Positions 12,372-38,000 of a stretch of 43,814 bases of DNA are shown piece by piece. The notes beneath the pieces are model-generated. The model was not told the DNA's origin. It saw only the letters and a program-made list of their open reading frames with translations, and did not search any database. The first letter of the stretch is position 1. Each line of letters begins with the position of its first letter. This stretch comes from a virus (taxonomy: Duplodnaviria; Caudoviricetes): positions 1 through 43,814 of the IMG/VR virus record IMGVR_UViG_3300011423_000014, one strand, 5' to 3'. The position numbers and the translations under genes were made by a program.

Positions 12372-12925
12372 GCAATGTGTTTCCAAATCTTCCTGGTGAT
12401 GATGCCCGAGCAGTGACCGGGCTTTATCCCAAATTTGTCAGCGATGTCGAGTTTACGCCATCCGTCGACGTAAAGCTTCCTGATCTCTGCGATATCGCTT
12501 TCGCTCAGTTTGGCCCTCGGATTATTCACTCCGCGTCGTATGGCTTCCGGATGTCTTCGGTAGTAGTGGTTCTCGCCGGACTGCATCCGCCCCTTCGAAG
12601 CCGCGTCTCGCATGTTGTCGGCGAGGGTGCCCAAGAACAGATGGCTGGGATTGCAACAGGCGCGAACGTCGCAATGATGGCAGACAAAGAAATTCCCTGG
12701 ATCGACACCGTGCCCGAGAAAATAAGCAAGGCGATTCGCTGCTACAACAATGCGACTTCTTGGCCCAGCCGGAGTAATACCGAAACATCCATATCCGTCG
12801 CTGTTCCTCATACCGGCTGTCCAAAGCCAGCACTCCGAATCGGAGCGGCGATCCACTTTTTTCCAGAATCTTTCTTTATCCTTCGCGGTAAGCGGAGGTA
12901 GCGTTCTACAATCTTTCAAGCCCAT
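12368..12925 (-). CDS. HNH homing endonuclease with C-terminal HTH (paralog 1)
   Basis: RFWKKVD..CWLWTA..GYG..NRLAY..VCHHCDVRACCNPSHLFLGT..DN..D; AKLSE..I.EIR..FGI. Confidence 0.9.
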   Translation of the reverse strand: MGLKDCRTLPPLTAKDKERFWKKVDRRSDSECWLWTAGMRNSDGYGCFGITPAGPRSRIVVAANRLAYFLGHGVDPGNFFVCHHCDVRACCNPSHLFLGTLADNMRDAASKGRMQSGENHYYRRHPEAIRRGVNNPRAKLSESDIAEIRKLYVDGWRKLDIADKFGIKPGHCSGIITRKIWKHIA

Positions 12926-13000
12926 GCGATCTCCTCGGAAAGGTCGTATCGGTCAGAGTCGGGTGGCGCTTCCAACGCCGCTCGGCTCGATCCATTCTAC
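12920..13000 (+). ncRNA. HNH-associated antisense two-hairpin element, copy 1
   Basis: ATGCGATCT-cctcggaa-AGGTCGTAT and GAGTCGGGTGGCG-cttccaa-CGCCGCTCGGCTC, fully paired with G-U on the + strand; TAGAAT -10 on the - strand. Confidence 0.7.
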
Positions 13001-13088
13001 GTGATTTCGATAGCGGAACGTCATGTTCTTTTGGTACTCTTGCTAGCAATCCCCGGCACCATGCCCGGCTTTCTAGAAAGGTACTTCG

Positions 13089-13781
13089 ATGATCAGAACA
13101 TTCGTTCTTGCGTCTCTTCTCGCACTCGGCACTTTACCCGCTGGTGCTACTTTGTTATCGACGCTCCTCCTTCCCGGCGGCTCTTTGTCAAATGGTTTGT
13201 TAACTGTAGACTCGTTTGAATTTACGCGCACCTGCGGCGGCATCGGTGTGTGCGCTCCCCTCGATGCGTCCGGCATCGACGTCACGCTCGTCAATAACCA
13301 GATCCGCTTTGCCGGCGGCTTCACCGCGCTCTCGAACGGGGGCTTCGCCAGTGCCGATTTCCTCGTCGCCTACCACCTCAATTCCACCTTGGCCATCGGC
13401 GGGGTCGGCCTCCTCTTCAACGGCGCCGTGGTTGGCGATCAGTCGTTCGCCGAAGTGATCGAGTCCATCATTGCTCCGATTGCTCACCTCGCCGGACAGG
13501 GTCAGGTCGACGCTCCCGGCGGTCCGCTCGCCGATGCCATCATCCTCGATGGCGCTTACCATAACCTCAAGATAGTGAAAGATATTTTCCTCGTCGGCTC
13601 GGACTCGGAAGGTCTCGGCTACGCGACGATCTCCCTGATCGATCAGTTCTACGTCGGAGTGGGCGTCAACCCGCTCTGCGTCGAAGGCGTGGACTGCGAG
13701 CCTGCAGTTCCTGAACCCGCTACGTATGGAATGATGGCTGCCGGTTTGATCGGACTCTACTTCACCAAGCGCCGGTCCTAA
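13089..13781 (+). CDS. PEP-CTERM sorting-domain surface protein
   Basis: N-terminal signal peptide; C-terminal VPEPATYGMMAAGLIGLYFTKRRS (PEP motif, TM helix, basic tail). Confidence 0.92.
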   Translation: MIRTFVLASLLALGTLPAGATLLSTLLLPGGSLSNGLLTVDSFEFTRTCGGIGVCAPLDASGIDVTLVNNQIRFAGGFTALSNGGFASADFLVAYHLNSTLAIGGVGLLFNGAVVGDQSFAEVIESIIAPIAHLAGQGQVDAPGGPLADAIILDGAYHNLKIVKDIFLVGSDSEGLGYATISLIDQFYVGVGVNPLCVEGVDCEPAVPEPATYGMMAAGLIGLYFTKRRS

Positions 13782-13819
13782 TCAGACTCCCTCCGTAACA
13801 CGACCCGGTAAGCTGGTAA

Positions 13820-13862
13820 GGGCCAGGACTGATCGGCAGATCCTCCTGGCCCTGTTTTTTTT
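13820..13862 (+). terminator. Rho-independent terminator
   Basis: GGGCCAGGA...TCCTGGCCC stem followed by a T run. Confidence 0.8.
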
Positions 13863-13889
13863 GCCTTGCGAGAGAAGCGGCTATATACT
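13861..13889 (+). promoter_or_regulatory. Sigma70-like promoter
   Basis: TTGCCT-17-TATACT. Confidence 0.6.
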
Positions 13890-13899
13890 CAACATCAAG

Positions 13900-14031
13900 A
13901 TGCCGCCACCCAAAGATCCTCCGGATCCTGAGTTCGATGAGATGTTCGAACCGGACTCGCCCGACGTTCCCCCCTCTGAACCGGACTACGCACCCGCCGA
14001 AGACGCCAATGAAGTAGAGGAGCTCACGTAA
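13900..14031 (+). CDS. 43-aa acidic Pro-rich peptide (not in ORF track)
   Basis: MPPPKDPPDPEFDEMFEPDSPDVPPSEPDYAPAEDANEVEELT; follows the promoter and its stop abuts the next ATG. Confidence 0.55.
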   Translation: MPPPKDPPDPEFDEMFEPDSPDVPPSEPDYAPAEDANEVEELT

Positions 14032-14853
14032 ATGGCTGCGATTAAACTCGATCAGAACGGTCTCCCGATCAATCCTGATTTCTTCGGCGGCGGCGGACTC
14101 GGAGGCGCTCTCGCCTCGCTCCCCGGCACGCCCGTCTTAGGCGGCGGCCGCATGCCGGTCGGCCCCGGTGGCGAAGGACTCACGCCCGGCCAACCTCCTC
14201 CCGGCACTGCTCCCCCGGAGGCTCCCGGCGGCGGCATCAACGGCTACCGCTCCGACACCGGCTATGGCAGCCCCCTTGCCGGCGGCGCCCCGCAAACCAA
14301 TCCAGGACTCCCGCCTCCTGCCTCCACCGCAGGCACCGGCGGCTTCTTCGGCGGACAATCGCCGTTCCAGCAGGGCGTCACCGGCACGCTGAACAACGAG
14401 ACGGTGCCCTTCAACTCAAACCAGTATGTGACCCCAGATGCCGCACAGAGGCTTGGCTCCCTGCTCGGCGCGAATGTCGTATCTCAGAATACCCAAGGGA
14501 TGGCGAGCCCCGGCAGCGGCGCACCTTCAGCGCCCCTCCTGGGGCTAGACTTCGGGGGCCAGGGTGACGTGCAAGATGCCGCGATGGGTGCTACGCAACT
14601 CGCGCGTGGCGATCGACCGGAAGATGTCGCCGCACGCTATCAGGCGGGCCGCACAACCAAGGCGTGGGCTGGTGATAACCCCATCCCTCAGCTCGCCGAG
14701 AATTGGGATGCGCCGTACTGGAACAGGAGTACGCCCGTCTCCACCAACACGCCCAACGCCGAGCAGGCTGGCTTCTTCGGCCAAGGCGGCGGCTCCCCCG
14801 ATCAGCAGCAGGCTTTCTTTACTTGGCTCAGAGGGCAGCTCGGCCAAGGCTAA
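14032..14853 (+). CDS. Gly/Pro-rich hypothetical protein (possible virion protein)
   Basis: GAGGAG SD; codon bias. Confidence 0.7.
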   Translation: MAAIKLDQNGLPINPDFFGGGGLGGALASLPGTPVLGGGRMPVGPGGEGLTPGQPPPGTAPPEAPGGGINGYRSDTGYGSPLAGGAPQTNPGLPPPASTAGTGGFFGGQSPFQQGVTGTLNNETVPFNSNQYVTPDAAQRLGSLLGANVVSQNTQGMASPGSGAPSAPLLGLDFGGQGDVQDAAMGATQLARGDRPEDVAARYQAGRTTKAWAGDNPIPQLAENWDAPYWNRSTPVSTNTPNAEQAGFFGQGGGSPDQQQAFFTWLRGQLGQG

Positions 14854-14858
14854 GTCCA

Positions 14859-14888
14859 TTGACAGTCTTCATATTCCAGGTTTAAACT
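14859..14888 (+). promoter_or_regulatory. Sigma70-like promoter upstream of the packaging genes
   Basis: TTGACA-18-TAAACT. Confidence 0.55.
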
Positions 14889-15055
14889 TGCAGCCACATG
14901 GCGGTTACTCTCTTGAACCGCTTCGACAGTCGTTGGAAATTGGGCATTTCTGTGGTTTCGGGCGACGAACTTCAGTGTGATCCGCGCCGCCCGGGAAATG
15001 GGCCGGTGGGCGCTGACTAGGTTCATCGGCCCTCTCTTTGGAATCTGAATCGATA

Positions 15056-15550
15056 ATGGCAACTGAACTAAAGAGTCTGTCCTACCGCCATCAGGCGCTC
15101 CTCAATTGGATGCTCGCCAATCCCCACCGCCAGTTGCGGGAAGCGGCCATCGAACTCAACTACGGCCGCCAATACGTCCACATTCTCGTCCACAACGATC
15201 TCTTCCAGCAGGCGTATAAAGAAGCTTGTAAAGAATTGGGAAAAGAGGCGGTGTTCGCCGGGGCGCAGATCACGGAGAAGCTTACATCGCTCGCCCACCG
15301 CTCGCTTGATGAAGTGGATAGAAGGCTCGAAGAGAACGAACTCGAGTCGCGCGAGCTGCTCACCGCCGCCAAGCTTTCCCTGACCGCTCTCGGCTACATC
15401 AACCCCAAGGGCTACTCGACCGACATGCACGTCCACTCGCATCTCCAGGTCGACGTGAACATTATTAATGAGGCGCGCGAGCGGGCGCTTTCACGCCGCG
15501 CCGCCGTGCCCCTCACCCTCGAAGCCAACCTCGAAGAACAGGAAACCTGA
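15056..15550 (+). CDS. Putative terminase small subunit (N-terminal HTH)
   Basis: RHQALLNWMLANP...REAAIELNY...V.IL...LFQ helical HTH-like pattern; lies upstream of TerL. Confidence 0.55.
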   Translation: MATELKSLSYRHQALLNWMLANPHRQLREAAIELNYGRQYVHILVHNDLFQQAYKEACKELGKEAVFAGAQITEKLTSLAHRSLDEVDRRLEENELESRELLTAAKLSLTALGYINPKGYSTDMHVHSHLQVDVNIINEARERALSRRAAVPLTLEANLEEQET

Positions 15551-16476
15551 TGCAAACCACCACGATGGAAGAACTCGCCGAGCGCCTCTACACGGCCAAG
15601 GCCCAGATGCTCGACTGGATGACGGCGGAGACGCTCGCCCCCATCCCCACCTGGTCGGAGACCCAGCGTACCGTCAAGAACGCCTGGTACCTCGTCGCCC
15701 AGCAGTCGATCGACGCCGAGGAGGAAACTCCGCCTCCCCCGCCGCCTATCCTCTTTGAAGCATCCGCCGGCGAGTCGAAAGATGAGAGGGCCATCGACAT
15801 CCTCGGCCCCCATCCCCAATGGGCTGCGCTCTCACCGGACGTCCAGACCGATTGGGCCGTGGTCGGCCAGGTCGCCACCGATGTCCAGGAAGATCTGAGG
15901 CGCGATGTGAAGCCGCTGCCTTTGAAGAAGAAGCAGCACGCCACCGACGAGCCGGTCGATCTGCCCGAACCCATCACCGGCCAGGCGAGCGTCACCTCGG
16001 CCCAACTCCTGGCACTCGTTGCCACACCCATCACGCTGGTCCCCGCGCCCGCCGCCGGCATTCAACTCCAGTTCGTCTCCGGCGCGCTCACCTATACGTT
16101 CGGTACGCTCGCCTACGTGGCCGGCGCCAACCTCCTCGTGGTCAAGGCGAACGGCGTGGCGGTATCGGAGACTCTCCCCGCCGCCGGACTCCTCGATACC
16201 CCGGCCAGTTCGACCGGTTCGATCACCGCCTTGCCGTACCCGCAGAACGTGGCGCCCGAGGCCACCGCGCTCATGCTCCACATCGAACCCGCGGACGTGA
16301 CCGGAGGCGACGGCACGCTCACCGTCGACGTGACCTACCGCGAGATCTCCACGGCTCCCGCCGCAGACGCCGCGGAAGCTCCGCTGATGTCCCGCAAGAC
16401 TGCCATCGGCGGGGCAGCGATGGCCGTTAAGCCGCCACTGGCGGGCGGCATCATCGCCAAGGGCAAAGGAAAGTAA
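15550..16476 (+). CDS. Two-domain hypothetical protein; C-terminal beta-rich domain is possibly structural
   Basis: LLALVATPITLVPAPAAG...GGDGTLTVDVTYR; TGATG coupling. Confidence 0.65.
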   Translation: MQTTTMEELAERLYTAKAQMLDWMTAETLAPIPTWSETQRTVKNAWYLVAQQSIDAEEETPPPPPPILFEASAGESKDERAIDILGPHPQWAALSPDVQTDWAVVGQVATDVQEDLRRDVKPLPLKKKQHATDEPVDLPEPITGQASVTSAQLLALVATPITLVPAPAAGIQLQFVSGALTYTFGTLAYVAGANLLVVKANGVAVSETLPAAGLLDTPASSTGSITALPYPQNVAPEATALMLHIEPADVTGGDGTLTVDVTYREISTAPAADAAEAPLMSRKTAIGGAAMAVKPPLAGGIIAKGKGK

Positions 16477-16538
16477 AGTCCTCGCGAGGGACTCTGACTC
16501 GATTACTCGTTTGATTCGATCCAAGGAGAATTGAACAG

Positions 16539-16931
16539 ATGACAGAAAAAGATACGGGCTACTCGAAGCCCGAACCCACGCCGCTCCCGGCACCCGGTCC
16601 CGAGCACACCGCCGAAGGGCTGGCCGAGAAACTCTTTGCCGCCTGGGCGGCTTACTGGAAGTCGGGCGACAAGGTTCCCGCCTGGAAGGATGCCGACTTA
16701 TCCATCAAGCTGAGGTGGCGCGCCGTGGCCAACCTGGCCCTCTCCCGCGGCCCCTTCGACGATCCGGACGAACACCGCCGCATGGCCGAAGACGACCGCT
16801 GGGCCTTCCAGCACGTCCGCGACATGGCCTTCGGCGATCCGGCCAAACCCAAGGACACCAAGGATGACAAGAACGACAAGCATCCTCCCGTCGCGGCCAC
16901 CACACCGGCCGCGCACACCGCCCACAAATAG
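16539..16931 (+). CDS. Hypothetical protein sharing a Trp motif with the preceding gene
   Basis: AAGGAG SD; LAEKLF...PAWKD...K.RW.AVA. Confidence 0.7.
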   Translation: MTEKDTGYSKPEPTPLPAPGPEHTAEGLAEKLFAAWAAYWKSGDKVPAWKDADLSIKLRWRAVANLALSRGPFDDPDEHRRMAEDDRWAFQHVRDMAFGDPAKPKDTKDDKNDKHPPVAATTPAAHTAHK

Positions 16932-16934
16932 CCG

Positions 16935-18443
16935 ATGAAGCAGACACGCTCCCCGTCCGTCGACCTCAACGAATTAGTATCGCTGTGCGCCACCGACGGG
17001 GAGCTTTTCTGCCGCACCTTCTTCCCCTCCGCCTTCCGCCAGTCGAGCCCGGAATTTCACCGCGAGATCTGGAAGGACTGGACGAATCCCGATGTGAGTC
17101 TGAGCGCCATTGCCGTCTTCCGCGGCGGTGCCAAGACCACCCTCCTCCGCGCCTACGTCGCGTGGAGTGTAGCCTACCGGGCTTCGCGCACCATCGCCTA
17201 CCTCGGGGCGTCGAGTGATAAGGCGCAGGAATCGGGTGACTGGCTGCGAAGATTGATCGAAGGAGGTAGTGAGGACGGTCTCGCCTTCGCGCAGGTCTAT
17301 GGATTACGCCCCGGTAACGTGTGGAATTCGGACAGGTTGGACATCCTCTGCCGCCTTTCGCAATCGAAGCCGGAGACGACGATCAGCATGGTTGCGCTCG
17401 GCATCACAAGCTCGGTAAGAGGGCTAAATATCGCAAACTACAGACCGGATCTGGTGTGTCTGGACGACGTTCAAACGGAAGAAAACGTTGGGAATGAGAC
17501 GCAGAGAAGCAAACTTAACGAATTAGTTTTTGCATCGATTTGGAATACAATGGCGCCGCGTTCTGAGGCTCCAAATTCCAAACTTGTGCTCCTCCAGACT
17601 CCGATGAGGCCACAGGATCTGATAGCTCGCGCCGAGCACAATCCGGATTTCAGATTCAGGAAGTTCGGAATTTTCGACGAGGCTGGGAAAAGCCGCTGGG
17701 AGGAAAGATTCCCGACCGCAGTTGTCATAAAGGAGGAGGAGGCTTCCCGGAGAGAGAACCAACATTCCTACTTCTGCCGCGAAAAGCGGTGCGTCCTCGT
17801 GCCGGACGAGGGCCAATTCTTCAGAATGTCGGATCTCCGCTACTACGAGACGCCACCGCTGAACATGATAACTGCTATCGGTGTCGATCCCGTTCCACCG
17901 CCGACGGCAGCGCAGGTAGCAGGAGCGCTGGCAACCAAGGATTTCGAATGCCATTGCGTGGTGGGTCTCACTTCGAATCGTGACGTATATTTACTCCAGT
18001 ACGCTCTCAGTCGTAATCATCACCCAGGATGGACTGCTAATACGTTTTTCGAGTTGGCGGGCAAGTGGAAGCCAATGCGAATCAGAGTCGAAGGAATCGC
18101 ATTTCAGGCCACCCTAAAGTATTTTCTCGATGAGGAGATGAAGCGCCGTGGCCGTTTCCATGTGGTGGAGATCTGGAAAGACCAACGGGCGAAGCCGATC
18201 CGGATTCGCCAGTCTCTGGCAGGGCTGGCATCGAACGGGAAGCTCTACGTTCGCCGTGATCAACGTGAGTTTTTGGAGCAGTGGGAGTCGTATCCGGGGA
18301 CTAGCCACGATGATCTGCTCGATGCCCTGTCGATGGCGGTTTCATTGGTCCTCGAACTGAGCGACAGTGTCGGCATGTTCGACGACATCAACACTCCCGG
18401 CAATACCGTGGAGTTGGAAAACGGGTGGCGTTTATGCCCGTGA
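16935..18443 (+). CDS. terL: Terminase large subunit
   Basis: Walker A FRGGAKTT, VRG..RPD, Walker B LVCLDDVQ, RNase H-like IGVDP and HDDLLDALS. Confidence 0.92.
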   Translation: MKQTRSPSVDLNELVSLCATDGELFCRTFFPSAFRQSSPEFHREIWKDWTNPDVSLSAIAVFRGGAKTTLLRAYVAWSVAYRASRTIAYLGASSDKAQESGDWLRRLIEGGSEDGLAFAQVYGLRPGNVWNSDRLDILCRLSQSKPETTISMVALGITSSVRGLNIANYRPDLVCLDDVQTEENVGNETQRSKLNELVFASIWNTMAPRSEAPNSKLVLLQTPMRPQDLIARAEHNPDFRFRKFGIFDEAGKSRWEERFPTAVVIKEEEASRRENQHSYFCREKRCVLVPDEGQFFRMSDLRYYETPPLNMITAIGVDPVPPPTAAQVAGALATKDFECHCVVGLTSNRDVYLLQYALSRNHHPGWTANTFFELAGKWKPMRIRVEGIAFQATLKYFLDEEMKRRGRFHVVEIWKDQRAKPIRIRQSLAGLASNGKLYVRRDQREFLEQWESYPGTSHDDLLDALSMAVSLVLELSDSVGMFDDINTPGNTVELENGWRLCP

Positions 18444-18445
18444 GA

Positions 18446-19045
18446 TCATGGCACGATGTGCTTCCACCGGATGCGGTGCACGATTTCGCTGATGACGCTC
18501 TGCGTAATTCCGAACTTTCTGCCGAGAGCGGATTGGCTGAACTCCCCGGTTGCGTAAAGCGCCCTAATCTCGGCGACGGCACTCCCGGTCAGCTTGGAGT
18601 TCCAATGCCCTTCCCCGCAAGGAACAAGCTCCGGATGTTTCCTGGAATAGTGGCGTTCTCCTCGTTGCGTAAGCTCCGGATGTTGCCGCGTCCAGTGGGT
18701 ATCCCCGGAGGATGTCAATCGTCCTTTGGCTTTGGCGTCCTGCATATTGTCGGTCTTCGTGCCCAAAAAAAGATGGCGAGGATTCACGCAAAGCCTCACG
18801 TCACATTTGTGGCAGACGCACAAAGGTCCAGGATCCACTCCATACTCCAGGAAGTAGGCGAGGCGGTGCGCCCGGATCACCCAGTTTTTCCCTCGTGGGC
18901 CGAAACCAATCTGTCCATATCCACTCTGAGTGCTAGCCGTCCACAGCCAACATTCATCCGGCCCTCGTTTCGCCACCTTGACCCAATATCGGGCGATGTC
19001 GCTAGGGGAAATCGGGGTGAGCGGGATACCATCTGTGATAGCCAT
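18446..19045 (-). CDS. HNH homing endonuclease with C-terminal HTH (paralog 2)
   Basis: [37 protein letters not shown]; GAGGAGG SD before ATG 19045. Confidence 0.9.
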
Positions 19046-19122
19046 TGGGGCCTCCTCGACCAAGGTCTCAATCGTCAGAGCCGCTGCGGTGCTGATACAC
19101 TGCGCGGCTCGTTCCATTCTAC
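19041..19122 (+). ncRNA. HNH-associated antisense two-hairpin element, copy 2
   Basis: ATTGGGGCCT-cctcgacca-AGGTCTCAAT and GAGCCGC(T)GCGGTG-ctgata-CACTGCGCGGCTC. Confidence 0.7.
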
Positions 19123-19139
19123 GCCCCGAAGGAGGCAAT

Positions 19140-19340
19140 GTGATTGACCAATTGATCTACCTGATCATCGCGATTATCATCTTCGCAATCGTAGTGTGGG
19201 GATTGAATTGGATCATCGTCACCTACCAGCTCCCGGCCCCCGTGAAATGGATCGTGGGCGGGTTACTTCTAATCGTGCTGCTGCTCTTCCTCGCCCATCA
19301 ACTGGGGGTCGGAGGCGGTGCGAGGCTCTTTCCACGATGA
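19140..19340 (+). CDS. 66-aa two-TM membrane protein (holin candidate)
   Basis: AAGGAGG SD with GTG start; two hydrophobic helices joined by QLPAPVK. Confidence 0.7.
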
Positions 19341-19433
19341 AAATTCACGCCTATCCGCGTTTACATGCGAATATGAAGTTCCTCTATGGGCCGCACACCT
19401 TTACGCTTCCAGGATTTGAAGGGCCTCGAGCCG

Positions 19434-19526
19434 ATGTGGAAACGCGAGATGACGTGGCCGGAGATCGCCGTGCTGTGCGTGATTCTGCTGGGGATCATCT
19501 ATCTTGTGGTGGAGCTTCGAAAGTGA
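19434..19526 (+). CDS. 30-aa single-TM peptide (not in ORF track)
   Basis: MWKREMTWPEIAVLCVILLGIIYLVVELRK; GTGA overlap with the next peptide. Confidence 0.5.
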   Translation: MWKREMTWPEIAVLCVILLGIIYLVVELRK

Positions 19527-19600
19527 GCTGGCTCGATGCACTCCTGCTCGCCGTGATGGCCCTCACTAGCATGGCGCTTTACTTGGGGGAAATGCCGTGA
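19523..19600 (+). CDS. 25-aa hydrophobic peptide (alternatively the C-terminus of ORF 19337..19600)
   Basis: GGAG SD, GTG start; MSWLDALLLAVMALTSMALYLGEMP. Confidence 0.4.
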   Translation: MSWLDALLLAVMALTSMALYLGEMP

Positions 19601-19602
19601 TC

Positions 19603-20154
19603 CTACACGTACGCCCATCGCTTCCGATTCACGATCAGGCATACGTTGGTCGCCGCGATCCCAAACTTGGCGGCGATTTCTGGCTGACTGTACAACCCCG
19701 TTGCGAACATCCTTCTGATCTCGATAACGTCAACCTCGGTCAACTTCGCGTTTCCGTGCCGCTCTCCGCGCGACGAAAGCTCCGGATGTGTCCGGTAGAG
19801 GTGATCGGTCTTCCACTTCATTCTCCCCTTGGACTGGCAGTCGCGGAAGTTCTCGGTCGCGGTGCCTGCAAAAAGGTGGTTAGGATTGACGCACGCCCTT
19901 ACATCACATTTGTGGCAGACGAAGAGCGGGGCGGGATCGTACCCGTAGCCCAAGAAAAAGGCGATTCGGTGGGCGTAGATATTCCGGCTCTTTCCTTCCG
20001 ATCTAATGCTCATGAATCCGTAGCCGGTACGCATCTTGCAGCCCGTCCAGATCCAGCAGGCATCCGGCCCAGCGCTTTGATCGAAGTGCGACCGGTATCG
20101 AGCAAGATATTTGTCCGCGATTTGCGGCAGCAACGTACAATCTGTTTTAGCCAT
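19603..20154 (-). CDS. HNH homing endonuclease with C-terminal HTH (paralog 3)
   Basis: [37 protein letters not shown]; GGAGG SD. Confidence 0.9.
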   Translation of the reverse strand: MAKTDCTLLPQIADKYLARYRSHFDQSAGPDACWIWTGCKMRTGYGFMSIRSEGKSRNIYAHRIAFFLGYGYDPAPLFVCHKCDVRACVNPNHLFAGTATENFRDCQSKGRMKWKTDHLYRTHPELSSRGERHGNAKLTEVDVIEIRRMFATGLYSQPEIAAKFGIAATNVCLIVNRKRWAYV

Positions 20155-20229
20155 TGGGCCTCCATGAAAGGTTCAATCGGTCAAGAGCCGCTGCGGCGCG
20201 TCAACGCTGCGCGGCTCGCTCCATTTTGT
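20150..20229 (+). ncRNA. HNH-associated antisense two-hairpin element, copy 3
   Basis: ATTGGGCCT-ccatgaa-AGGTTCAAT and GAGCCGC(T)GCGGCG-cgtcaa-CGCTGCGCGGCTC. Confidence 0.7.
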
Positions 20230-20240
20230 CAGGAGGCAGC

Positions 20241-22178
20241 GTGACCGGCAAGTTTAAAATTCCGTTCGATGGGGACGTGCATCAGGAAATCCTAGAGAAA
20301 TTGCTGCACATGTTTAGCTCCTCCAGGAACAGGATGAGCAGCCGTCACGAAAAATGGAAGAAAGCTGAAGATTTGTATAGGGCTTACCTACCAGAGACTG
20401 AGGCATCGTCCAAAAAGCAAAGAGCGCGTGAACAGGGTAGCGCTTCACAGTTTAGTGAAGTCATTTTGCCGTATAGCTACGCGCTTGCTTTGACAAGTCA
20501 CACGTATGCCACGAGCGTCTTCCTGGGGCGCGATCCGGTCTGGCAATTCCGCGGGCGCCACGGGGAGACCGAGCAGTCGACGCAGTGCCTCGAAGCCCTG
20601 ATCGCCTACAACCAGGACATCGGCGACATGGCGACCAACGAGTTCATCTGGCTGCTCGACGCCATCAAATACGGCTGCGGCGTAGTGGGTTCGGATTATG
20701 CGAAGGAATACCAAATCTTCAGTGAGTACGTCCCTATAGCGCCTACGCTTGGGGGAATCGACCTCGGTGCGGATCCGAAATGGGAACTGGTGGAAGAGCG
20801 CGTGGAAGGCTACTGCGGTAACCGGCTCACCAACGTGCGCCCCTACGATTGGTATCCGGATCCAGGTGTACCCCTCGTCAACTTCCAGGACGGCGAGTTC
20901 TGCGGCCACACGATGATGATGGGCCTCGAGCGGCTCCGCTCGATGAAGAACGAGTGGGATCTGTTCAACCTCGACCAGCTCGAGGGCGGCATGGGCGTGG
21001 GCGGCAACAACATGGCCCCCTCTACGGCCGGCAGCCGGGATAACATGCTCGCTGCCGAAAAGGTTTGGGATCCGAAGGATCTCAAGGGCGGCAAGGTAGG
21101 CATCTTCCGCGTCGTCGTCAACGTGGTGCCGGAGGCGTGGAAGCTTCCCGGCAAGTACTACCAGAAGTGGGAATTCCTGGTGGCGAATAACTCGGTCATC
21201 ATCAAAGCCAGTCCCCTCGGTTTGAGGCACTGTAAGTTCCCCTACGACGCCATCGCCTGGGAGACCGACGGCTATGACTCATCGACGCGCGGGATGATGG
21301 AAGTCACCAAGCCGCTGAACGACGTGATCAATTGGCTCTACAACACGCACATGTTCTCGGTGCGGCGCTCGCTCAACGGCAACCTGATCATCGATCCCGA
21401 CCGCATCAATGTGAAAGACTTGATCGACGGCGGACCCGGACGGATCGTCCGCATGCGCCCCGGCACAGGCTATGGCACCGACGTGCGCTCCGCCGTCGCG
21501 GAACTGATGAACGTCGATCCCACTCGAGGGCATCTCTCGGACACGCAGTTCACCGAAGGGTTGATGCAGCAGATCACCGGGTCGAACGACTCGCTGATGG
21601 GTTCCCTTGGTCGCGGCAGAAAGACTGCAACCGAAGTCCGGACGGCCGCCGCCCAGGGAGCCAATCGCATGAAGACATTCTGCGACTTCGCCTCTGCTCT
21701 GGGCTGGTCGCGTTTAAGCCGCAAAATGGTGGCGAACTTACAACAGTTCTACGACCAGGAGAAGATGTTCCGCATCGCCGGCGACCTGATGCAGGGCACC
21801 AAGTTCGTCAACGTCGATAAGACGATGATTACCGGCGAATTCGACTACGTGCCCGTCGATGGCACGCTCCCGGTCGACCGGTTCGCGCAGGCCACGCTCT
21901 GGAAAGAGATCTTCTCGGTGATCGGGAAGAACCCGCAGATTGCCCAGCAGTACGACATCTCGCGGATCTTCGGGCACATGGCTTCGCTCGCGGGTTTGAA
22001 GAACATCACGCAGTTTCGCATCACGCCGGACGAGGCGGCGATGCAGCAGGCGCAGGCCGGAAATCTAGTCCCCGCGGGGCAGGCAATGGGAGGCGAAGGC
22101 GGTGGCGGATACCCCGGAACAAGTCCGACAGCAGCGATTGCAAGCATGGTCAACGGAGCTGGCGGAGCACCGCAATGA
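20241..22178 (+). CDS. Portal protein
   Basis: AGGAGG SD with GTG at 20241; about 645 aa; position after TerL; PYDWYPDP, KTATEV, ITG..D..MG portal-like motifs. Confidence 0.85.
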   Translation: MTGKFKIPFDGDVHQEILEKLLHMFSSSRNRMSSRHEKWKKAEDLYRAYLPETEASSKKQRAREQGSASQFSEVILPYSYALALTSHTYATSVFLGRDPVWQFRGRHGETEQSTQCLEALIAYNQDIGDMATNEFIWLLDAIKYGCGVVGSDYAKEYQIFSEYVPIAPTLGGIDLGADPKWELVEERVEGYCGNRLTNVRPYDWYPDPGVPLVNFQDGEFCGHTMMMGLERLRSMKNEWDLFNLDQLEGGMGVGGNNMAPSTAGSRDNMLAAEKVWDPKDLKGGKVGIFRVVVNVVPEAWKLPGKYYQKWEFLVANNSVIIKASPLGLRHCKFPYDAIAWETDGYDSSTRGMMEVTKPLNDVINWLYNTHMFSVRRSLNGNLIIDPDRINVKDLIDGGPGRIVRMRPGTGYGTDVRSAVAELMNVDPTRGHLSDTQFTEGLMQQITGSNDSLMGSLGRGRKTATEVRTAAAQGANRMKTFCDFASALGWSRLSRKMVANLQQFYDQEKMFRIAGDLMQGTKFVNVDKTMITGEFDYVPVDGTLPVDRFAQATLWKEIFSVIGKNPQIAQQYDISRIFGHMASLAGLKNITQFRITPDEAAMQQAQAGNLVPAGQAMGGEGGGGYPGTSPTAAIASMVNGAGGAPQ

Positions 22179-22437
22179 CGTCACGCACCTTGAAGCTCTT
22201 GAGCAGCACCCAGGCTGGCGTATATTGCGCCGTGAGCTCGGAGCCATTCTTCGTTATAAGCGCGATGAGCTTGCGACTAAGCCCCTGGTGGGAGAGCAGC
22301 TCCAACAATCCGCAATCCTCCAGGGATATTGCGAGGGGATTGACATGGCCCGGCAGGCTCCCGAGCGCTTTGCCGAAAACTGGCGCAACGCCATCGAAGT
22401 ATTGAAACGAGAGATTGAAAATGTGGAAGAAGAGTAG
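22102..22437 (+). CDS. Small helical protein following the portal
   Basis: L..HPGW..L.........L......G...G pattern typical of the post-portal gene in podophages. Confidence 0.65.
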   Translation: MADTPEQVRQQRLQAWSTELAEHRNDVTHLEALEQHPGWRILRRELGAILRYKRDELATKPLVGEQLQQSAILQGYCEGIDMARQAPERFAENWRNAIEVLKREIENVEEE

Positions 22438-26128: not shown

Positions 26129-26132
26129 CGCC

Positions 26133-28381: not shown

Positions 28382-28382
28382 C

Positions 28383-30671: not shown

Positions 30672-30680
30672 GGAGACGAC

Positions 30681-31583: not shown

Positions 31584-33260
31584 ATGCCAGCCATCATGCC
31601 GCCCATCAACCCCAATATCATCGCCGCGCTCGGGCAGTATTTCGGCGGCATGCAGAACCGCACGATCCGCACGCCTCCCTTCGTTCGCCCCGGCAGTACG
31701 GCTCAACGTGGCGAGGTGCTCGGCAGGCCCAGCATGCCTACTCCGGGGATGCCGCAGCCGATGCCGTCCGGTGGCGCTGCCCCGACTGCGCCGGGGGTGG
31801 CTCCGCCCCCCAGATCCTTGGGTGATGCTCTCTCTACCATTCCCATTCAGCCCACGCTGACTCCTACTCCTCGGGCTGCTACTCCGGTTGCTGCCGCTCC
31901 TGCCACGCCGCCTCCCAACTATCAATTGGATCCGGGCGAACTGCCGGAGGGATTCAGCGAGATCAAGGATGCATCGGACGGAAGCCGGAGACTGGTTGAC
32001 GCCGATGGGAATGAGTACGTCTACAACGCCAGCGGCCGCCAGATCAGTGGTCCTCCGCCGCCCGCTGCTGCCGCGCCGTCTGCTGCACCATCCGCTGCTC
32101 CAAGCGCGGAACCGCCCGAGGAAGATACTCCCAGAGCGGCAACGCAGAGGGGCATTAAATCGACTGTCGCCAATGAACTCGGAGGTCGCACTGATGAAGA
32201 TACCGATGGGACTAAGTATGTCTACGACAAGAACAACAAGTTAGTGAAGACAATTGCGCCTCCTGGAGGATCGCCAGTTACTGGCACGCAACCCGGTGGT
32301 GGCGCTCAGGCTCCTGCGTCAATGCCTCAAAAGAAGGGCGGTATCTGGGATAGGTTGACTGACCCCAGCTTAGCCGGTATTGCCTTAGCCGCAGGGCAGC
32401 AGATGACTCGCGCCAGATACCCCGGAGAGAGCGGCATAGGTAACGCCGTTAACGCAGTAACTGCCGGGTACAACACGCTCGCTCAGCAGAGGCAAATGCA
32501 GTATGCCAGAGAGCAGGCTGAACGGGAGCGGAAACTGAAGGAACAGGAAGCCTTCCAGAAGACCGTCGAGAGTAACGCGCGTATCAAGGATTACGAGAGT
32601 CAAGGGGAACGACGGGCTGCGCAATCTACTGAGGCACAGCAGAAGTATGGCCTTGACGCAGCCAAGGCCATACAGGAAGAACTCAAGCAGGAATGGGACC
32701 AGAATATGGCCCTCCTGGAACAGGCTAGGAAGGAAGGCGATACCGCATCGGAGATACAGCGTCGAAAGGACTTGACCAGGATTGCCGATGAGCAACTCAA
32801 GATCTCCGAAAGAACTGTAACTAACGCCGAAGCCAAGCTCGCTGAAGATACCCGTCAGTTCAATCTTGGTCGCATCGACAAAAACCAACTCGACCAGAGC
32901 AGGCTGCAACTCGAACGCATTCGGTCGAATGCCGCCGCCACGCAGGCACAAGCAGCAATGATGAGAGCCGGTGCCGAGCACCTGACTCCCCACGTCAATA
33001 CTGCGACTCGGGTGGTATTGAACCAGATCAACAAGGCGAGGGAGACCGCCGTCAACAACGGTGATCCGTTCACCGAACCGGATGACGAAGCCGTCACTGA
33101 ACGGATCATGCAGGTGGCCGGTGGAATGGCCAACAAGCCAGCGGCTGCTGCTCCCGCCGCCACGCCACAAGGCGAAGCCAAGGTATGGCAAGATCCGAAA
33201 ACCGGCAAGTTAGTCACGCGCGGTCCTGACGGTAATTGGGTCGAAGTTCAGGTGAAGTAA
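31584..33260 (+). CDS. Putative internal virion/ejection protein with coiled coil
   Basis: AGGAG SD; long coiled coil; position. Confidence 0.65.
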   Translation: MPAIMPPINPNIIAALGQYFGGMQNRTIRTPPFVRPGSTAQRGEVLGRPSMPTPGMPQPMPSGGAAPTAPGVAPPPRSLGDALSTIPIQPTLTPTPRAATPVAAAPATPPPNYQLDPGELPEGFSEIKDASDGSRRLVDADGNEYVYNASGRQISGPPPPAAAAPSAAPSAAPSAEPPEEDTPRAATQRGIKSTVANELGGRTDEDTDGTKYVYDKNNKLVKTIAPPGGSPVTGTQPGGGAQAPASMPQKKGGIWDRLTDPSLAGIALAAGQQMTRARYPGESGIGNAVNAVTAGYNTLAQQRQMQYAREQAERERKLKEQEAFQKTVESNARIKDYESQGERRAAQSTEAQQKYGLDAAKAIQEELKQEWDQNMALLEQARKEGDTASEIQRRKDLTRIADEQLKISERTVTNAEAKLAEDTRQFNLGRIDKNQLDQSRLQLERIRSNAAATQAQAAMMRAGAEHLTPHVNTATRVVLNQINKARETAVNNGDPFTEPDDEAVTERIMQVAGGMANKPAAAAPAATPQGEAKVWQDPKTGKLVTRGPDGNWVEVQVK

Positions 33261-33269
33261 GGAGTTCCA

Positions 33270-36200
33270 ATGGCCTTGCCTCCGCCTCCGAAGGGATACG
33301 TCCCGGTAAATGGCCTGACTGTGAGAGCGCCAGCCGGAGGCTTGCCTCCTCCGCCTCCAGGCTTTGTGCCGGTGACTATGCCGGTGTCTGCTTTACCGAA
33401 TCTTCCACCACCTCCCGCCGGCTTCGTGCCGGTGGATCAAGATCTGCTGACTAACTCAGCAGTACACCCGGTTCAACCGGGGGCGGTTGCAACAGGGGGG
33501 CTGAATCCGAGTCCTCCTGCGCTCTCCTGGCAGGGAGCAGTGCAACATCCAGCCGCGTTCGCGGGGCAGGTCTTCGAGCGCACCTTCGATCTGACCGGAG
33601 CAATCCGCGAGTCAGCCGAGGCTACTTTGAAGGGCATCCCCCAAGCTGCCAAGTCCCTGCTCGGCGGCGCACAGAGCGTGGTCGGGACCGTGGAGGATAT
33701 CAACAACCTGACCTCCCGTGTCGGCACGCGCCTGACCGGGAAACCAGACTTAAACTCGCGCGCCCTCTCGAAGAGAATCGCCGACATCAACGTCAGTATC
33801 AAGAAGCCGGATGTCACCTCGCCATCCCTGCAAGAGGGCCTCGCTGATCCGCGTCTCTTGGGACGGGCGGTTGGCGGGGTAGTAGGATCGAGCGCCGTAC
33901 CAATGGCGGCGACTATCGGCGCAGGCGTGGTGGGAGGGATTCCCGGCGCAACGATTGTCTCCACCATGCTGAATGCCGGAGATGTCTTCAACACTCTCAC
34001 CGATGCAGGAATAAATGCCAACGAGGCAGCACTGACGGCGGGCCTTTCGATGGCGGCTCTCGATGCGATCGTGCCGCTGCGGGCGCTCGGTCTGTGGAAC
34101 AAGAAAGGGCTGGAGCAAGCCATCAAGGCGGGCATTGCGAAGACCCCCAAGTCAGTGATTCGCACATGGGCCAAGGAAGCGGCACTCGAAGGTGCGACAG
34201 AGACAGCCCAAGAGGGCATAGCCGCCGGTACGGAAGCAGCTCACGGTATCAAGCAGCCGAATCTTTTCTGGCGACTGGTGAATGCGGGACTCGGCGGAAC
34301 GATGATCGGGTTCGGGGTGGGCGCGGCTGGCCGTCCATCTGCTGCCGAGACTACGGTTGCGCCGCCTCCCCGCTTCGAGCCGATGGGTCCGCCTGCGCCT
34401 CCTCCTGCTGCTCCTGCGCCAGTTGTGGAAGCGAGTGCTCCGCCTCCTCCCGGCTTTGTGCCCGTGCAGCCGAGGCTCTCTAATCGTCCGCAGCCTCTCG
34501 CCACGCCAGCGGTTCGAATGTCTGGCGTGAGCGGAGGGCCTCCCACGCCTACAGCGCCTTTACCTGCTCCAGTCGCGGCGGCTCCTGAGATTCAGCCGAG
34601 CGTGGATATTCAGCCTCCCGCCGGCGACATGGTGATCCAGACCCCGGAAGGCCCTCAGGTCGCAGACAGCGCGCAAGTCCTCACCGACAAAGTCCTCACC
34701 GTAGCCGAGGAAGCGCCGGAAGTGAAACCCGCTGTGCCTCAGAGCACCCTCGATAAGTGGGATGCCGAAGGCAAAGCAGCCGACGACGAACTCCGCCAGA
34801 TGGGTCTGTTCACCGGCGGACGGGCTTCAATGGGCGCCTTCCTCGATCCGAAAGTCATCAGCAAGATGGCGCTCTCGATCCGGGGTGACGTGGCCCGCTT
34901 CGTGATTCATGCCGGCAACGCCGTCGAAAAGATCGTTGCCAAGTTCGGCGAGGACTACCGTCCGATCGCTGTGCAAGTATTCGAGGAGGCGCGGAAGCTG
35001 GCAGGAATGCCCTCTGCTGCGCCGCCAGTTAGCTCAGGAGCGCCCGCTGCCGTTCCGGCGTCCGTCACAGCCACCCCGCTCCCCGGCTCGCCACAGGGCC
35101 AGCCACCGCCATTGCCCACCGAGCCGAGGGACATGCCCTCTCTCCGCACCGAAGGGCTTACCACCTCCCAGCGGATCAACATCGGCATCCGGACCGTGGG
35201 CACGATCAACCGTAACAACCTCCAGTTCCGCCAGATGGCCGAGCAGAACCCCGACTTCCAGCCCATCCAGGACCAGCTTGCCGCCAAGAACCGCATGGAC
35301 CGGACCATCCAGAACTGGAAGAACAAAGGCGGGGATGCGATGGAGGAGTGGAACGCGCTCGGCGAGGAGCGGGGCCGGCAACTGAGCGACTTCAACTACA
35401 CCGTCCAGGATTGGACCCAGAGGGCGAACCGCCCGCTGACCGAGCAGGAAGTGATGCAGCTTGCCGACAAAGCCGGCCTTGACGAGGAGACCGTTACCGT
35501 CTACCAGCGCCAGCAGCAGACCTTCCGCGAATTCTGGGAGGGCTTGCGCCAGGCGGAGGTCTCTGAACTCGAGCGGGAGATCAAAGATCCGGAAGCTCTC
35601 GCCTCGGCCATCGCCACGCTGAACAAGGAGGTCGACGAGAAGGCGCGCAGAAACTACTTTCCATTAATGCGGTTCGGCGACTGGATGGTCACCTCGTACC
35701 TCAAGACCGACGACCCGCAATACCCCTCGGGAAAGAAGGTCCACCGGCACGAGCAATACGCGAGCGAGAAGGCCGCCGAGGAAGCCGCCACCCGGATGGA
35801 GCGCGACTACGCCGCCGCCGGCATCGTCCCGGAAAACGTTACGGTGGGCGAACTGTCCCCAGAGGTACGGGACATGGGCCACCTCCCGCCTTCCATCGCC
35901 GAGAGGCTTGCTTCCAAGCTCAACCTGACCGACAAGCAGCGCGCCGCCTTCGACGACATGATGGCTTCGACGATGGTCGAGCGCTCCGGCCGCCAGCACC
36001 AGAAGTACCGCGAAGGTATTCCCGGATACAGCCGCGACGGCAAGCGCACCGCGGGCGCCTACTTCTCGGCGATGTCGAACCTCATCGGCCGGACGGCGGA
36101 GCGCGGCAATATCCTGCAAGCGGTGAACGATGCGAGGACGTATCGCAAGAACCTGCGCGCCGAGACTCCGGGGCAGTTCGTCAATCTCACCAAGATCAAC

Positions 36201-37919
36201 CACATGATCGAGTTCATGGACGATGCCGCCAAGAACCAGATCAGCCCCAAGGTGCATTCCAACACTCTCAGCGGGGCGATGATGCTGTGGTGGCTCGGCT
36301 ACAACCCCAAGCAGATCCTGCTCAACTTCACCCAGCTCGGCCAAGGCGTGGCCGTCCTGGCGGATCAGGTCGGTCCGGACGGCGGGAAGGTGGGCATCCC
36401 CGCGGCCACCGCGCAAATGCTCAAGGCGATCCGGGATGTGAGCCACGCTTACTCGAAGCGCGTCTTCTCGAAAGACAAGCACAAAGTCGTCGGGGCGCCG
36501 GGGGACCAGCAGAATTACATCGGCAACCTCACCCGCGAAGAATGGGAAGCGCTCGAAAACGCGAGGCTCAGCGGCCTCGTCGGCGAGACCAACGCGAAGA
36601 TGGTGACGCAGCACGCCAAGACTTCGACCCTCGAGAAGCTCGGCGGCAGGATCTCCGGCATCAGCGGAGAGGAGGCCGGCAGGAAGCGGGACGAGCAGCT
36701 CGCCCATCTCGCCGAAGGCAGCATGGCGGGCTTCCAGTGGAGCGAGGAGTGGCTGCGCCGCACGATTCTCGTGGCCTCGGGCAGGGCCATGAAAGCCAAG
36801 GGCAGCGCCAATCCTTGGGGGACCGCCGAGCAGGTGGTCCGCAGTTCGCAGGGGAGCCACGAGGCATCGAACCGCTCGAAGCTGCAGCGGGACTGGCCGA
36901 AGACGCTGATCTTCAAAAGCTTCCTGCTCAACAACGCCTATCTCGGGACGCTGTCCCCGTACCGGCGGAAGATCTGGCTCGCGCAACTGCTGCTGGCCGG
37001 CCTCACCGGCGGCTTTGCGATGGAGCATTTCTTCCAACTCATCGACACGCTCGGCTCCCTGTTCAACTGGCACTTCTTCGGCATGAAGAACCCGCGCGTC
37101 GACCTGCAACACGCCATCCGCGAGTGGGTCAACTGGGGCGCCGGGAAGGCTAGCGTTCCAGGGGCCGGTCCCTACGCGAGCGAGTTCCTGCTGAAGGGTC
37201 TGGCGGGCGGGATACCGGGGAATCCGTGGGATCTGCAGGCGTCGACCTCGCAGGGGAAGGCGCTGCCCTTCATCGAGCAGTTCCTCGACTTGATCAATGG
37301 CACGACCACTCCCCAGAATGCCTTATGGAAAACGGCGGAGGATATTACCGGCCTCGCAGGTTCCACAGCGATGAACGCCACCAAGGCGCTCGTCGAAGAC
37401 AGCCCGACCTCCGAGAACATCATCCGCACCGTCATGCCCAAGGCCGCCTCGCAGCCTTTGCAGGCGCTGCGTGCCCTCGCTGCGGGAGGAGTCAGGGATT
37501 CGAAGGGCGCCAAGCTCATTACGCTCGACCCGAGTAAGCCGCGGGACGTGATCGAAATTGCTGGCATGGCCGCCGGCATCCAGCCCAAGCGCCTCACGCA
37601 GGCGCGGGAGCAGAAGTGGGCGCCCAAGGAATTGAATCTCTACTACGACAACCTGCTCCGGGGTTTGCAGAACGACTACAACAAGGCGCGGGCGACCAAG
37701 GATCCGCAAGTCATCCGGGCGATGAACAAGGAAATCATCCGGATCAACCGCGAGGTTCTGCCGCAGGGATTCAACCGCACGCTCGGCGAGTACCTGGCCA
37801 ATTACCAGAACCGCAACAAGGGCCTGCGGAAGGAAGAGCGGGGTGTTCCGCCGGGAGCGGTGCGGCGGCGCGGCTATGTCAAGGGCTACATGGGAGCCTA
37901 CGGCGAACGCGCACAGTAG
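33270..37919 (+). CDS. Large internal virion (ejection) protein, 1549 aa
   Basis: AAGGAG SD; PPPPxG(F/Y)VPV repeats, EGATETAQE, NYFPLMRFG, LGYN....L.N.TQ; last gene of the virion operon. Confidence 0.75.
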   Translation: MALPPPPKGYVPVNGLTVRAPAGGLPPPPPGFVPVTMPVSALPNLPPPPAGFVPVDQDLLTNSAVHPVQPGAVATGGLNPSPPALSWQGAVQHPAAFAGQVFERTFDLTGAIRESAEATLKGIPQAAKSLLGGAQSVVGTVEDINNLTSRVGTRLTGKPDLNSRALSKRIADINVSIKKPDVTSPSLQEGLADPRLLGRAVGGVVGSSAVPMAATIGAGVVGGIPGATIVSTMLNAGDVFNTLTDAGINANEAALTAGLSMAALDAIVPLRALGLWNKKGLEQAIKAGIAKTPKSVIRTWAKEAALEGATETAQEGIAAGTEAAHGIKQPNLFWRLVNAGLGGTMIGFGVGAAGRPSAAETTVAPPPRFEPMGPPAPPPAAPAPVVEASAPPPPGFVPVQPRLSNRPQPLATPAVRMSGVSGGPPTPTAPLPAPVAAAPEIQPSVDIQPPAGDMVIQTPEGPQVADSAQVLTDKVLTVAEEAPEVKPAVPQSTLDKWDAEGKAADDELRQMGLFTGGRASMGAFLDPKVISKMALSIRGDVARFVIHAGNAVEKIVAKFGEDYRPIAVQVFEEARKLAGMPSAAPPVSSGAPAAVPASVTATPLPGSPQGQPPPLPTEPRDMPSLRTEGLTTSQRINIGIRTVGTINRNNLQFRQMAEQNPDFQPIQDQLAAKNRMDRTIQNWKNKGGDAMEEWNALGEERGRQLSDFNYTVQDWTQRANRPLTEQEVMQLADKAGLDEETVTVYQRQQQTFREFWEGLRQAEVSELEREIKDPEALASAIATLNKEVDEKARRNYFPLMRFGDWMVTSYLKTDDPQYPSGKKVHRHEQYASEKAAEEAATRMERDYAAAGIVPENVTVGELSPEVRDMGHLPPSIAERLASKLNLTDKQRAAFDDMMASTMVERSGRQHQKYREGIPGYSRDGKRTAGAYFSAMSNLIGRTAERGNILQAVNDARTYRKNLRAETPGQFVNLTKINHMIEFMDDAAKNQISPKVHSNTLSGAMMLWWLGYNPKQILLNFTQLGQGVAVLADQVGPDGGKVGIPAATAQMLKAIRDVSHAYSKRVFSKDKHKVVGAPGDQQNYIGNLTREEWEALENARLSGLVGETNAKMVTQHAKTSTLEKLGGRISGISGEEAGRKRDEQLAHLAEGSMAGFQWSEEWLRRTILVASGRAMKAKGSANPWGTAEQVVRSSQGSHEASNRSKLQRDWPKTLIFKSFLLNNAYLGTLSPYRRKIWLAQLLLAGLTGGFAMEHFFQLIDTLGSLFNWHFFGMKNPRVDLQHAIREWVNWGAGKASVPGAGPYASEFLLKGLAGGIPGNPWDLQASTSQGKALPFIEQFLDLINGTTTPQNALWKTAEDITGLAGSTAMNATKALVEDSPTSENIIRTVMPKAASQPLQALRALAAGGVRDSKGAKLITLDPSKPRDVIEIAGMAAGIQPKRLTQAREQKWAPKELNLYYDNLLRGLQNDYNKARATKDPQVIRAMNKEIIRINREVLPQGFNRTLGEYLANYQNRNKGLRKEERGVPPGAVRRRGYVKGYMGAYGERAQ

Positions 37920-37920
37920 C

Positions 37921-38000
37921 GTAGACTAGAGCAGGCCGCGCAGTGTTACTAGCACTGCTACGGCCCTGACCTTATGACCTTTCGAGGAGGCCACATTGGC
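37921..38000 (-). ncRNA. HNH-associated antisense two-hairpin element, copy 4
   Basis: On the - strand, TGTGGCCT-cctcgaa-AGGTCATA and GGGCCGT(A)GCAGTG-ctagtaa-CACTGCGCGGCCT; TAGACT -10 on the + strand at 37922. Confidence 0.7.

Follow-up and report, generated by a model that had tools for sequence, protein, structure and literature searches.

A two-hairpin element at the start codons of four phage HNH genes has the layout of the antisense RNAs RepX, FinP and SymR

Introduction

What does the short two-hairpin element at the start codon of four HNH genes do in the phage record IMGVR_UViG_3300011423_000014 (Duplodnaviria; Caudoviricetes), and on which strand does it act? The whole 43,814-base record, which has a completeness estimate of complete, was analysed and is called the window here. 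Control of phage homing endonucleases is known from messenger RNA (mRNA) hairpins that hide the ribosome-binding site (RBS), and control by an antisense RNA of their own would add another means; the antisense mechanism itself is textbook. To judge by its title, a 2010 paper by Millard et al. concerns an antisense RNA that links psbA and a homing endonuclease.

We propose that an antisense -10 box and the two hairpins (together with their linker, the cassette) probably make a cis-antisense RNA of roughly 75 nucleotides (nt), of the RepX/FinP/SymR type, which would block translation of the nuclease. This proposal draws on observations: the antisense strand folds and covaries, the box has a fixed position, the likeness to RepX, FinP and SymR is in register, and nuclease and cassette move as one block. 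A first-pass annotation, made from the letters of the window alone, had also suggested antisense control of the HNH genes, and this is still the best reading.

Results

Structure of the element

Each of the four HNH start codons (TTG in copy 4) is overlapped by a two-hairpin unit of about 75 bases, at the places where the first-pass annotation had located it. The predicted RNAs are as follows.

12919..12994 (+), predicted antisense RNA copy 1: hairpin A 12920-12953 with the anti-Shine-Dalgarno (anti-SD) CCU in its loop, linker GUCA, hairpin B 12956-12988
19040..19116 (+), predicted antisense RNA copy 2: hairpin A 19041-19075, linker GUCA, hairpin B 19078-19110
20149..20223 (+), predicted antisense RNA copy 3: hairpin A 20150-20181, linker GUCAA, hairpin B 20185-20217
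37927..38001 (-), predicted antisense RNA copy 4: hairpin A 37969-38000, linker GUCA, hairpin B 37933-37966

The annotation had described a common layout with a GUCA linker and a hairpin B of 13 base pairs. The 13 pairs recur in all four copies, whereas copy 3 departs in its GUCAA linker and, because of it, is missed by a pattern of linker plus hairpin B that matches three times in the window against 0.04 expected from shuffles. With a covariance model in which they are included, the four copies score 57-65 bits, and the rest of the window scores at most 13.3 bits.

Folding z-scores for copies 1-4 are -4.5, -4.1, -2.9 and -2.9 on the antisense strand, and 0.1, -1.7, -1.5 and -1.3 on the HNH strand. 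The minimum free energy structures of the four antisense copies contain 80 Watson-Crick, 19 G-U and no A-C pairs; the earlier statement that irregular pairs are G-U without exception is true of the stems themselves and fails at the base of hairpin A, where copies 1 and 2 have a C-C mismatch. The CCU of loop A is computed to be unpaired (P 0.95-1.0). Computed duplex energies are about -100 kcal/mol net for cognate partners against -15 to -47 for non-cognate ones, so that each copy would largely control itself.

No Rfam family reached its gathering cut-off in the window, and a check proposed in the annotation accordingly found none on any copy. Self-cleaving ribozymes (HDV-like, hammerhead) and group II domain V were considered and rejected, since Rfam gave no match and the look-alike letters are those of the anti-SD and linker.

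Homologues, strand bias and covariation

Homologues were sought in viral contigs with a pattern that holds the start codon, anti-SD and linker only, which returned at least 121 stretches (about 280 estimated), 112 of them distinct. A strand-neutral filter for hairpin B passed 45, of which 43 are non-redundant (107 of 2240 shuffles also passed), and excluded 55 non-redundant rows, some of them true elements by a later model. Removal of three likely chance matches (L145, L192 and L212) gave a set of 40. The stem finder used for strand bias scored G-U and A-C pairs equally.

With the fixed bases unmasked, the 43 elements have G-U to A-C ratios of 47:1 in hairpin A and 34:7 in hairpin B. Outside the bases fixed by the pattern, the ratios in the set of 40 are 34:0 and 29:2 (63:2 in total), with a G-U excess in 34 elements, a tie in six and the reverse in none, and the antisense strand folds more stably in 41 of the 43. 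Both partners vary at 18 of the 26 paired positions in a plain MAFFT alignment of 25 elements, and at 22 of the 26 when 82 elements are aligned by fitting to the model, an alignment biased towards the structure, where none of 500 shuffles scored as high. RNAalifold recovered the base of hairpin B alone from a plain 44-row alignment, a weak result caused by variable stem lengths that misalign, and the structure for the 25-row test and for the phage-only covariance model was therefore set by hand from single-sequence folds. The 82 elements are 68-83 nt long, and 79 have the GUCA linker, which is partly built into the search. These larger sets bear out both the covariation and the annotation's view that the structure is selected on the antisense strand.

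These counts bear directly on an explanation of the T4 type, in which the hairpins form a leader that hides the RBS on the HNH mRNA itself. The mRNA strand does fold, at -23 to -30 kcal/mol, with the Shine-Dalgarno sequence (SD) mostly paired in copies 1-3, and precedents exist in the T-even endonucleases, which are regulated by RBS-sequestering mRNA structures (PMC2988022, in the part available), and in the hairpin leaders of marine phage endonucleases (PMC2677866, likewise in part). The 63:2 ratio and the stability comparison favour the opposite strand, and an mRNA leader leaves the antisense box described below unexplained, which makes this explanation highly improbable.

The cassette seems to be common in uncultured phages and prophages. 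A blastn search of copy 2 against cultured phages gave no match, and one of a homologue gave a single match, in Rhizobium phage RHph_Y1_10; against plasmids, blastn returned short weak matches only.

Promoter-like boxes on both strands

The antisense strand has TANNNT at bases +14..+19 of the open reading frame (ORF), within codons 5-7, in all four copies, a second -10 box that the first-pass annotation had missed. Hexamers of this type occur at 0.45% of positions in the window. Together with the sense box beyond hairpin B, it makes two facing promoter-like boxes about 80 bases apart.

12907..12912 (+), antisense -10 box of copy 1: TACAAT, ORF +14..+19
19027..19032 (+), antisense -10 box of copy 2: TACCAT, ORF +14..+19
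20136..20141 (+), antisense -10 box of copy 3: TACAAT, ORF +14..+19
38009..38014 (-), antisense -10 box of copy 4: TATACT, ORF +14..+19
12994..12999 (-), sense -10 box of HNH copy 1: TAGAAT
19116..19121 (-), sense -10 box of HNH copy 2: TAGAAT, with ATCACA at 17 nt
20223..20228 (-), sense box of HNH copy 3: CAAAAT, weak and without TA
37922..37927 (+), sense -10 box of HNH copy 4: TAGACT

The sense box after hairpin B had been reported for every copy; it is present in copies 1, 2 and 4, whereas the CAAAAT of copy 3 lacks the TA. A consensus promoter scan called a full promoter on the sense side of copy 2 only.

In the phage homologues, TA stands at the antisense -10 position (with a 6- or 7-nt spacer) in 35 of the 40 elements, against a background mean of 1.6 and maximum of 4. 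At -35, TTG is present in 17 of 35, and 18 control offsets gave counts of 0-4. Neither signal was part of any search pattern. The same TA is found in 63 of the best 65 bacterial-genome elements, and the full TANNNT at +14..+19 in all 15 cassettes of close relatives. Among the nearest HNH relatives, a start could be tested in 9 that carry the cassette and in 21 that do not (45 loci had none); TA occupies this offset in 7 of the former and in none of the latter, so the box is not a protein constraint. By its sequence, then, the element has a promoter-like signal of its own inside the first codons of its target, with a -35 region that is weak in the window and enriched in the homologues.

The nuclease genes and their mobility

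All four proteins are HNH_3 (PF13392) members of 177-199 amino acids (aa), 49-53% identical to copy 2, and each gene lies tail-to-tail with a host gene.

12368..12925 (-), HNH_3 copy 1: 185 aa; stop overlaps the DNA methyltransferase stop
18446..19045 (-), HNH_3 copy 2: 199 aa from the ATG at 19045; tail-to-tail with the terminase large subunit; optional insertion
19603..20154 (-), HNH_3 copy 3: 183 aa; immediately precedes the portal gene; optional insertion
37996..38529 (+), HNH_3 copy 4: 177 aa, TTG start; tail-to-tail with a DUF3987/primase gene

The proteins have the His-Asn-Asn core of the domain, and the genes are optional at two fixed sites, as is typical of free-standing HNH homing endonucleases, which these four genes most likely encode; cleavage of the empty allele and homing into it are predicted. 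A search of the HNH profile against solved structures gave no match, and Pfam found no RuvC-type family in the HNH proteins, with copy 3 adding a weak zf-His_Me_endon match. A quick tree puts the four HNHs in one clade (SH-aLRT, an approximate likelihood-ratio support value, of 96), and the four copies are therefore not independent observations. The cassette is carried by 10 of the 11 rows of this clade and by three more carriers outside it.

We examined 17 loci, several of them near-duplicates, around close relatives of the portal gene. They hold 15 cassettes (by model) and 15 HNHs (by tblastn), always co-occurring or jointly absent. Of the terminase-side sites, 10 of 16 lack both, as do 8 of 17 on the portal side. 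Where the insertion is absent, the terminase stop leads directly to the next SD, and the portal ATG and the preceding stop codon overlap as ATGA; in filled alleles a fresh SD stands behind hairpin B. A given site hosts differing HNH variants that are about 40-55% identical. HNH and cassette insert as one optional block. The empty alleles, documented at the sites of copies 2 and 3, were taken from related contigs, four DNA runs aligned to 11500-21500 having given no clean joint across HNH and cassette. No relatives turned up for the primase gene beside copy 4.

Insertion of this kind could be read differently, with the antisense box as an outward promoter that restores expression of the host genes downstream, the hairpins as a stabilising 5' leader, and HNH repression as a side effect. 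Consistent with this, a strong SD and start codon directly follow hairpin B in copies 2 and 3 (in copy 3 the portal AGGAGG and GTG lie within about 25 nt), the new SD arrives where the portal ATG had been coupled to an upstream stop, no U-tract follows hairpin B, and 22 of 38 nuclease-linked rows have an upstream neighbour that runs antisense. Copy 4, however, points at the end of a convergent 1549-aa gene and has no downstream gene to serve, as do 14 of the 38 rows (RHph_Y1_10 among them), yet box and fold are kept in all of these, and the hairpin A loop displays exactly the anti-SD. We consider an outward promoter as the element's primary role unlikely.

The first-pass annotation had instead named read-through from the neighbouring operon, with no promoter of the element's own, as the source of the antisense strand. 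The tail-to-tail arrangement of all four HNHs and the weak antisense -35 regions of the window are in keeping with such a supply. We took a census of orientation with a crude codon model in the 38 nuclease-linked rows (one a duplicate). The cassette-side neighbour is antiparallel to the nuclease in 22, parallel in 14 and unclear in 2; for the gene after the nuclease stop, scored in 28 rows, the counts are 18 antiparallel, 9 parallel and 1 unclear. In the annotated RHph_Y1_10 the cassette-bearing HNH is parallel to the capsid operon. With about a third of the nuclease-linked homologues parallel to their neighbours, operon read-through cannot be the general antisense source. A conserved TA or TANNNT at a fixed place in the ORF, TTG enrichment at -35 and a selected structure that starts exactly at the predicted start site also speak for a dedicated promoter, and read-through as the sole supply is very unlikely.

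Genes headed by the cassette

Among 37 scanned ORFs from the 40 phage elements, 25 belong to nuclease families in Pfam or PHROGs, including HNH of several kinds, two of GIY-YIG type and a single protein with a LAGLIDADG-like part; the remainder comprises stubs, short peptides and unknowns. The model was also run on 80 of the 120 loci that the pattern matched in bacterial genomes and gave 71 matches, of which the best 65 were analysed. Pfam names five of their 62 ORFs (two serine recombinases, RadC, Rap1a and a methyltransferase) and finds no nuclease among them, and three begin like HNHs of the phage set. The presence of the cassette on GIY-YIG nucleases, recombinases and many unknown prophage genes makes it a general control unit for genes of mobile elements, whose main clients in phages are nucleases. 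Its description as part of a mobile nuclease cassette is therefore right in that it moves with the nuclease, and too narrow in that it also heads many non-nuclease genes of mobile elements.

The annotation had offered two alternatives, an RNA that serves the HNH as cofactor or guide, and a recombination hairpin of single-stranded DNA. The unit does travel with the nuclease, and G-T pairs are also tolerated in single-stranded DNA hairpins. The same cassette nevertheless heads unrelated products (GIY-YIG, serine recombinases, RadC, methyltransferase, 14-aa peptides and unknowns), it is present at only 10 of the 80 nearest HNH loci, and no Rfam family, the IscB-type HEARO/omega-RNA included, matched at cut-off in the window. 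DNA energy parameters give a small strand preference that is reversed in copy 4, and the promoter boxes point to transcription. We found no support for either alternative and give the pair next to no weight.

Several individual loci extend this picture. At L271, L285, L261 and L283, in bacterial genomes, the genes headed by the cassette are serine recombinases, RadC and an integrase-like ORF, a hint at antisense control of genes for integration or excision. At L113, L129, L149 and L218 it heads 14-aa peptides ending in GVKQx or VVKQC, with small membrane-like ORFs next; these may be leader peptides that exist solely to carry the antisense promoter. At L082:1495-1570 (-), the cassette and a 24-aa stub, which starts as the L101 and L104 HNHs do, lie directly before a capsid-like gene, and the nuclease appears to have been deleted with cassette and antisense box retained. 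Two HNH genes on opposite strands of L091, within about 400 bases, each have their own cassette (1137-1212, +, and 1495-1569, -). A 45-kb close relative (G002; L005, L009, L242-L244) has five cassette matches, all heading HNH genes, partly at other sites.

Other features of the phage record

The + strand of the window encodes terminase, SU10-like portal and capsid, tail and ejection genes, and the - strand replication genes (Pfam and PHROGs). Among 45 ORFs scanned against PHROGs, the majority of which were unmatched, none matched an integrase or RNA polymerase, and a tRNA search of the window found none. A fifth nuclease at 925-1758 (-) belongs to another family (phrog_374 HNH family) and has no cassette; members of that family with a cassette occur elsewhere (L130, L142, L152, L156 and L204). 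Small hydrophobic ORFs at 19140-19600 (+), between terminase and portal, are kept in relatives, and the flanking HNH blocks are variable. The C5 DNA methyltransferase ORF at 10722-12371 (+) has 549 aa, with a Pfam match confined to residues 70-166, and is overlapped in another frame by an ORF of 376 aa with repeated AGWPTP motifs at 11221-12351 (+). A PEP-CTERM protein at 13089-13781 (+) is unusual cargo for a phage and hints at a host with an exosortase system.

Discussion

Proposed mode of action

In the cis-antisense mechanism that we favour, the RNA would start at the A of AGCCAU, 7 nt past the antisense box as in SymR, and the HNH mRNA would start from the facing -10 box just past hairpin B. 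The CCU of loop A would contact the AGGAG of the RBS, a full duplex would form and ribosome loading would be blocked; by analogy with FinP (PMC8136791, in part), the duplex may also invite cleavage by RNase III. Accumulation of a stable RNA after entry could allow a short early burst of nuclease, enough for homing, followed by repression. In all four copies the gene opposes the operon, an arrangement in which read-through from the host genes would contribute further antisense RNA; the antisense promoter of copies 1-3 may, in addition, drive the gene that follows.

Several observations weigh against this mechanism. The mRNA side folds too, with the SD largely paired in copies 1-3. No full sigma-70 promoter was called at the four antisense sites, whose -35 regions are poor, and just 16 of the 40 phage homologues have the full TANNNT, the others having TA alone. 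Hairpin B is followed by no U-tract (mostly 1-3 T in the 6-nt tail of the 82 elements) and by no terminator call in the window, which leaves the 3' end undefined; the hairpins may belong to the 5' leader of some longer RNA, which in copies 1-3 would be the mRNA of the next gene. A YUNR motif is present in the first loop of just 32 of the 82 elements, and the phage encodes no FinO/ProQ domain (PF04352). The timing of an early burst is pure conjecture. Finally, the scores of FinP and SymR with model R2, a covariance model from the phage copies alone, are near noise (a chance level of 18.8 bits arises once in 329 kb), so the argument from these two RNAs rests on their register and the common -10 offset.

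Comparison with known systems

The closest precedents for endonuclease control are the T-even and Aeh1 homing endonucleases (I-TevI, segB, mobE) and the leaders of Dassa et al. (2009), which share with the phage element an RNA structure at the gene start that restrains translation. Their hairpins are described on the mRNA strand and are bypassed by a T4 late promoter, whereas in the phage element the opposite strand is selected (G-U to A-C being 63:2 for antisense, the reverse of selection on the mRNA strand) and the -10 boxes are of host type.

The layout of the element, which the first-pass annotation had taken to be apparently undescribed, is instead that of RepX, FinP and SymR, which also give its best sub-threshold Rfam matches. 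Like these RNAs, it is about 75 nt long, has two stem-loops with a short spacer and is complementary to the RBS and start codon. Plasmid_R1162 (RF00043) is the top or second match on the element in 10 of 18 phage loci (23.5-37.2 bits, cut-off 55), FinP (RF00107) is the best match on copy 2 (21.8 bits, cut-off 45), and symR (RF01809) matches one of the 18 loci (34.7 bits, cut-off 61). In the other direction, R2 matches RepX at 31.1, FinP at 21.4 and SymR at 18.5 bits, all at full length, in register and starting six bases into the ORF; in SymR the match starts at the annotated first base. A -10 box occupies ORF +14..+19 in all three, with TAGGCT in repA/RepX, TACGAT in traJ/FinP and TAGAAT in symE/SymR. 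These sequence comparisons suggest that the element works as RepX, FinP and SymR do while lying outside all three Rfam families.

RepX of the IncQ plasmid repA gene shares an AGCCAU start opposite the start codon, CCUCC atop hairpin 1, a long second hairpin and the lack of a U-tail. Its linker is GUUA rather than GUCA, within a GGU-U/C-A pattern common to both, and it targets a replication helicase, whereas the target here is an HNH_3 nuclease and antisense expression is predicted. RepX overlaps the RBS and start of repA and has a FinP-like two-stem-loop fold with about 50% identity, a GUUA spacer and no U-tail (PMC8136791, from the part of the paper available). A cassette-headed 45-aa ORF at L310:772-906 starts MATNTHKPIAW, near the IncQ RepA start MATHKPINIL, a possible trace, judging by these letters, of shared ancestry with RepX.

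FinP of the F-like plasmids is, at about 76-79 nt, of similar length to the element and likewise has a pair of stem-loops, the first of which holds the anti-SD CCUCCUC, and a 4-nt spacer (GACA against GUCA). It differs in its 3' U-rich tail and FinO partner, and in its target traJ, a transcription activator; the phage elements have no U-tract. FinO requires the 3' tail of stem-loop II (PMC3105414, in part). SymR of E. coli shares a length of 77 nt, a promoter within the coding sequence, a start 7 nt past the box, two hairpins and repression of a harmful protein's translation, and differs in target family (symE against HNH_3). For SymR, the available part of PMC1891008 reports that its promoter lies within symE and that a silent -10 mutation abolishes the RNA and shows repression at translation.

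Our literature search, whose scope left aside subscription papers and the supplements of PMC10690425 (more than ten thousand candidate phage RNAs, which may hold the motif), found no such RNA described on phage endonuclease genes and no paper that joins SymR, FinP and RepX. A more tentative proposal, which we hold possible though we would sooner doubt than accept it, is that these three RNAs share descent with the cassettes that head hundreds of phage and prophage genes, all being one ancient portable module of two facing promoters and an antisense RNA, with the -10 box locked in codons 5-7. With such a module, a gene that is harmful or selfish could insert in either orientation, be expressed for a short time on entering a naive cell and then silence itself; diverged stems would keep the brakes private, so that an incoming nuclease escapes the resident RNA and homes, and the antisense promoter could double as a repair promoter for the operon. 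The comparison itself places RepX, FinP and SymR, which have been studied separately, on one blueprint with the same promoter offset, and fold plus offset provide a simple sequence signature for a family that Rfam lacks.

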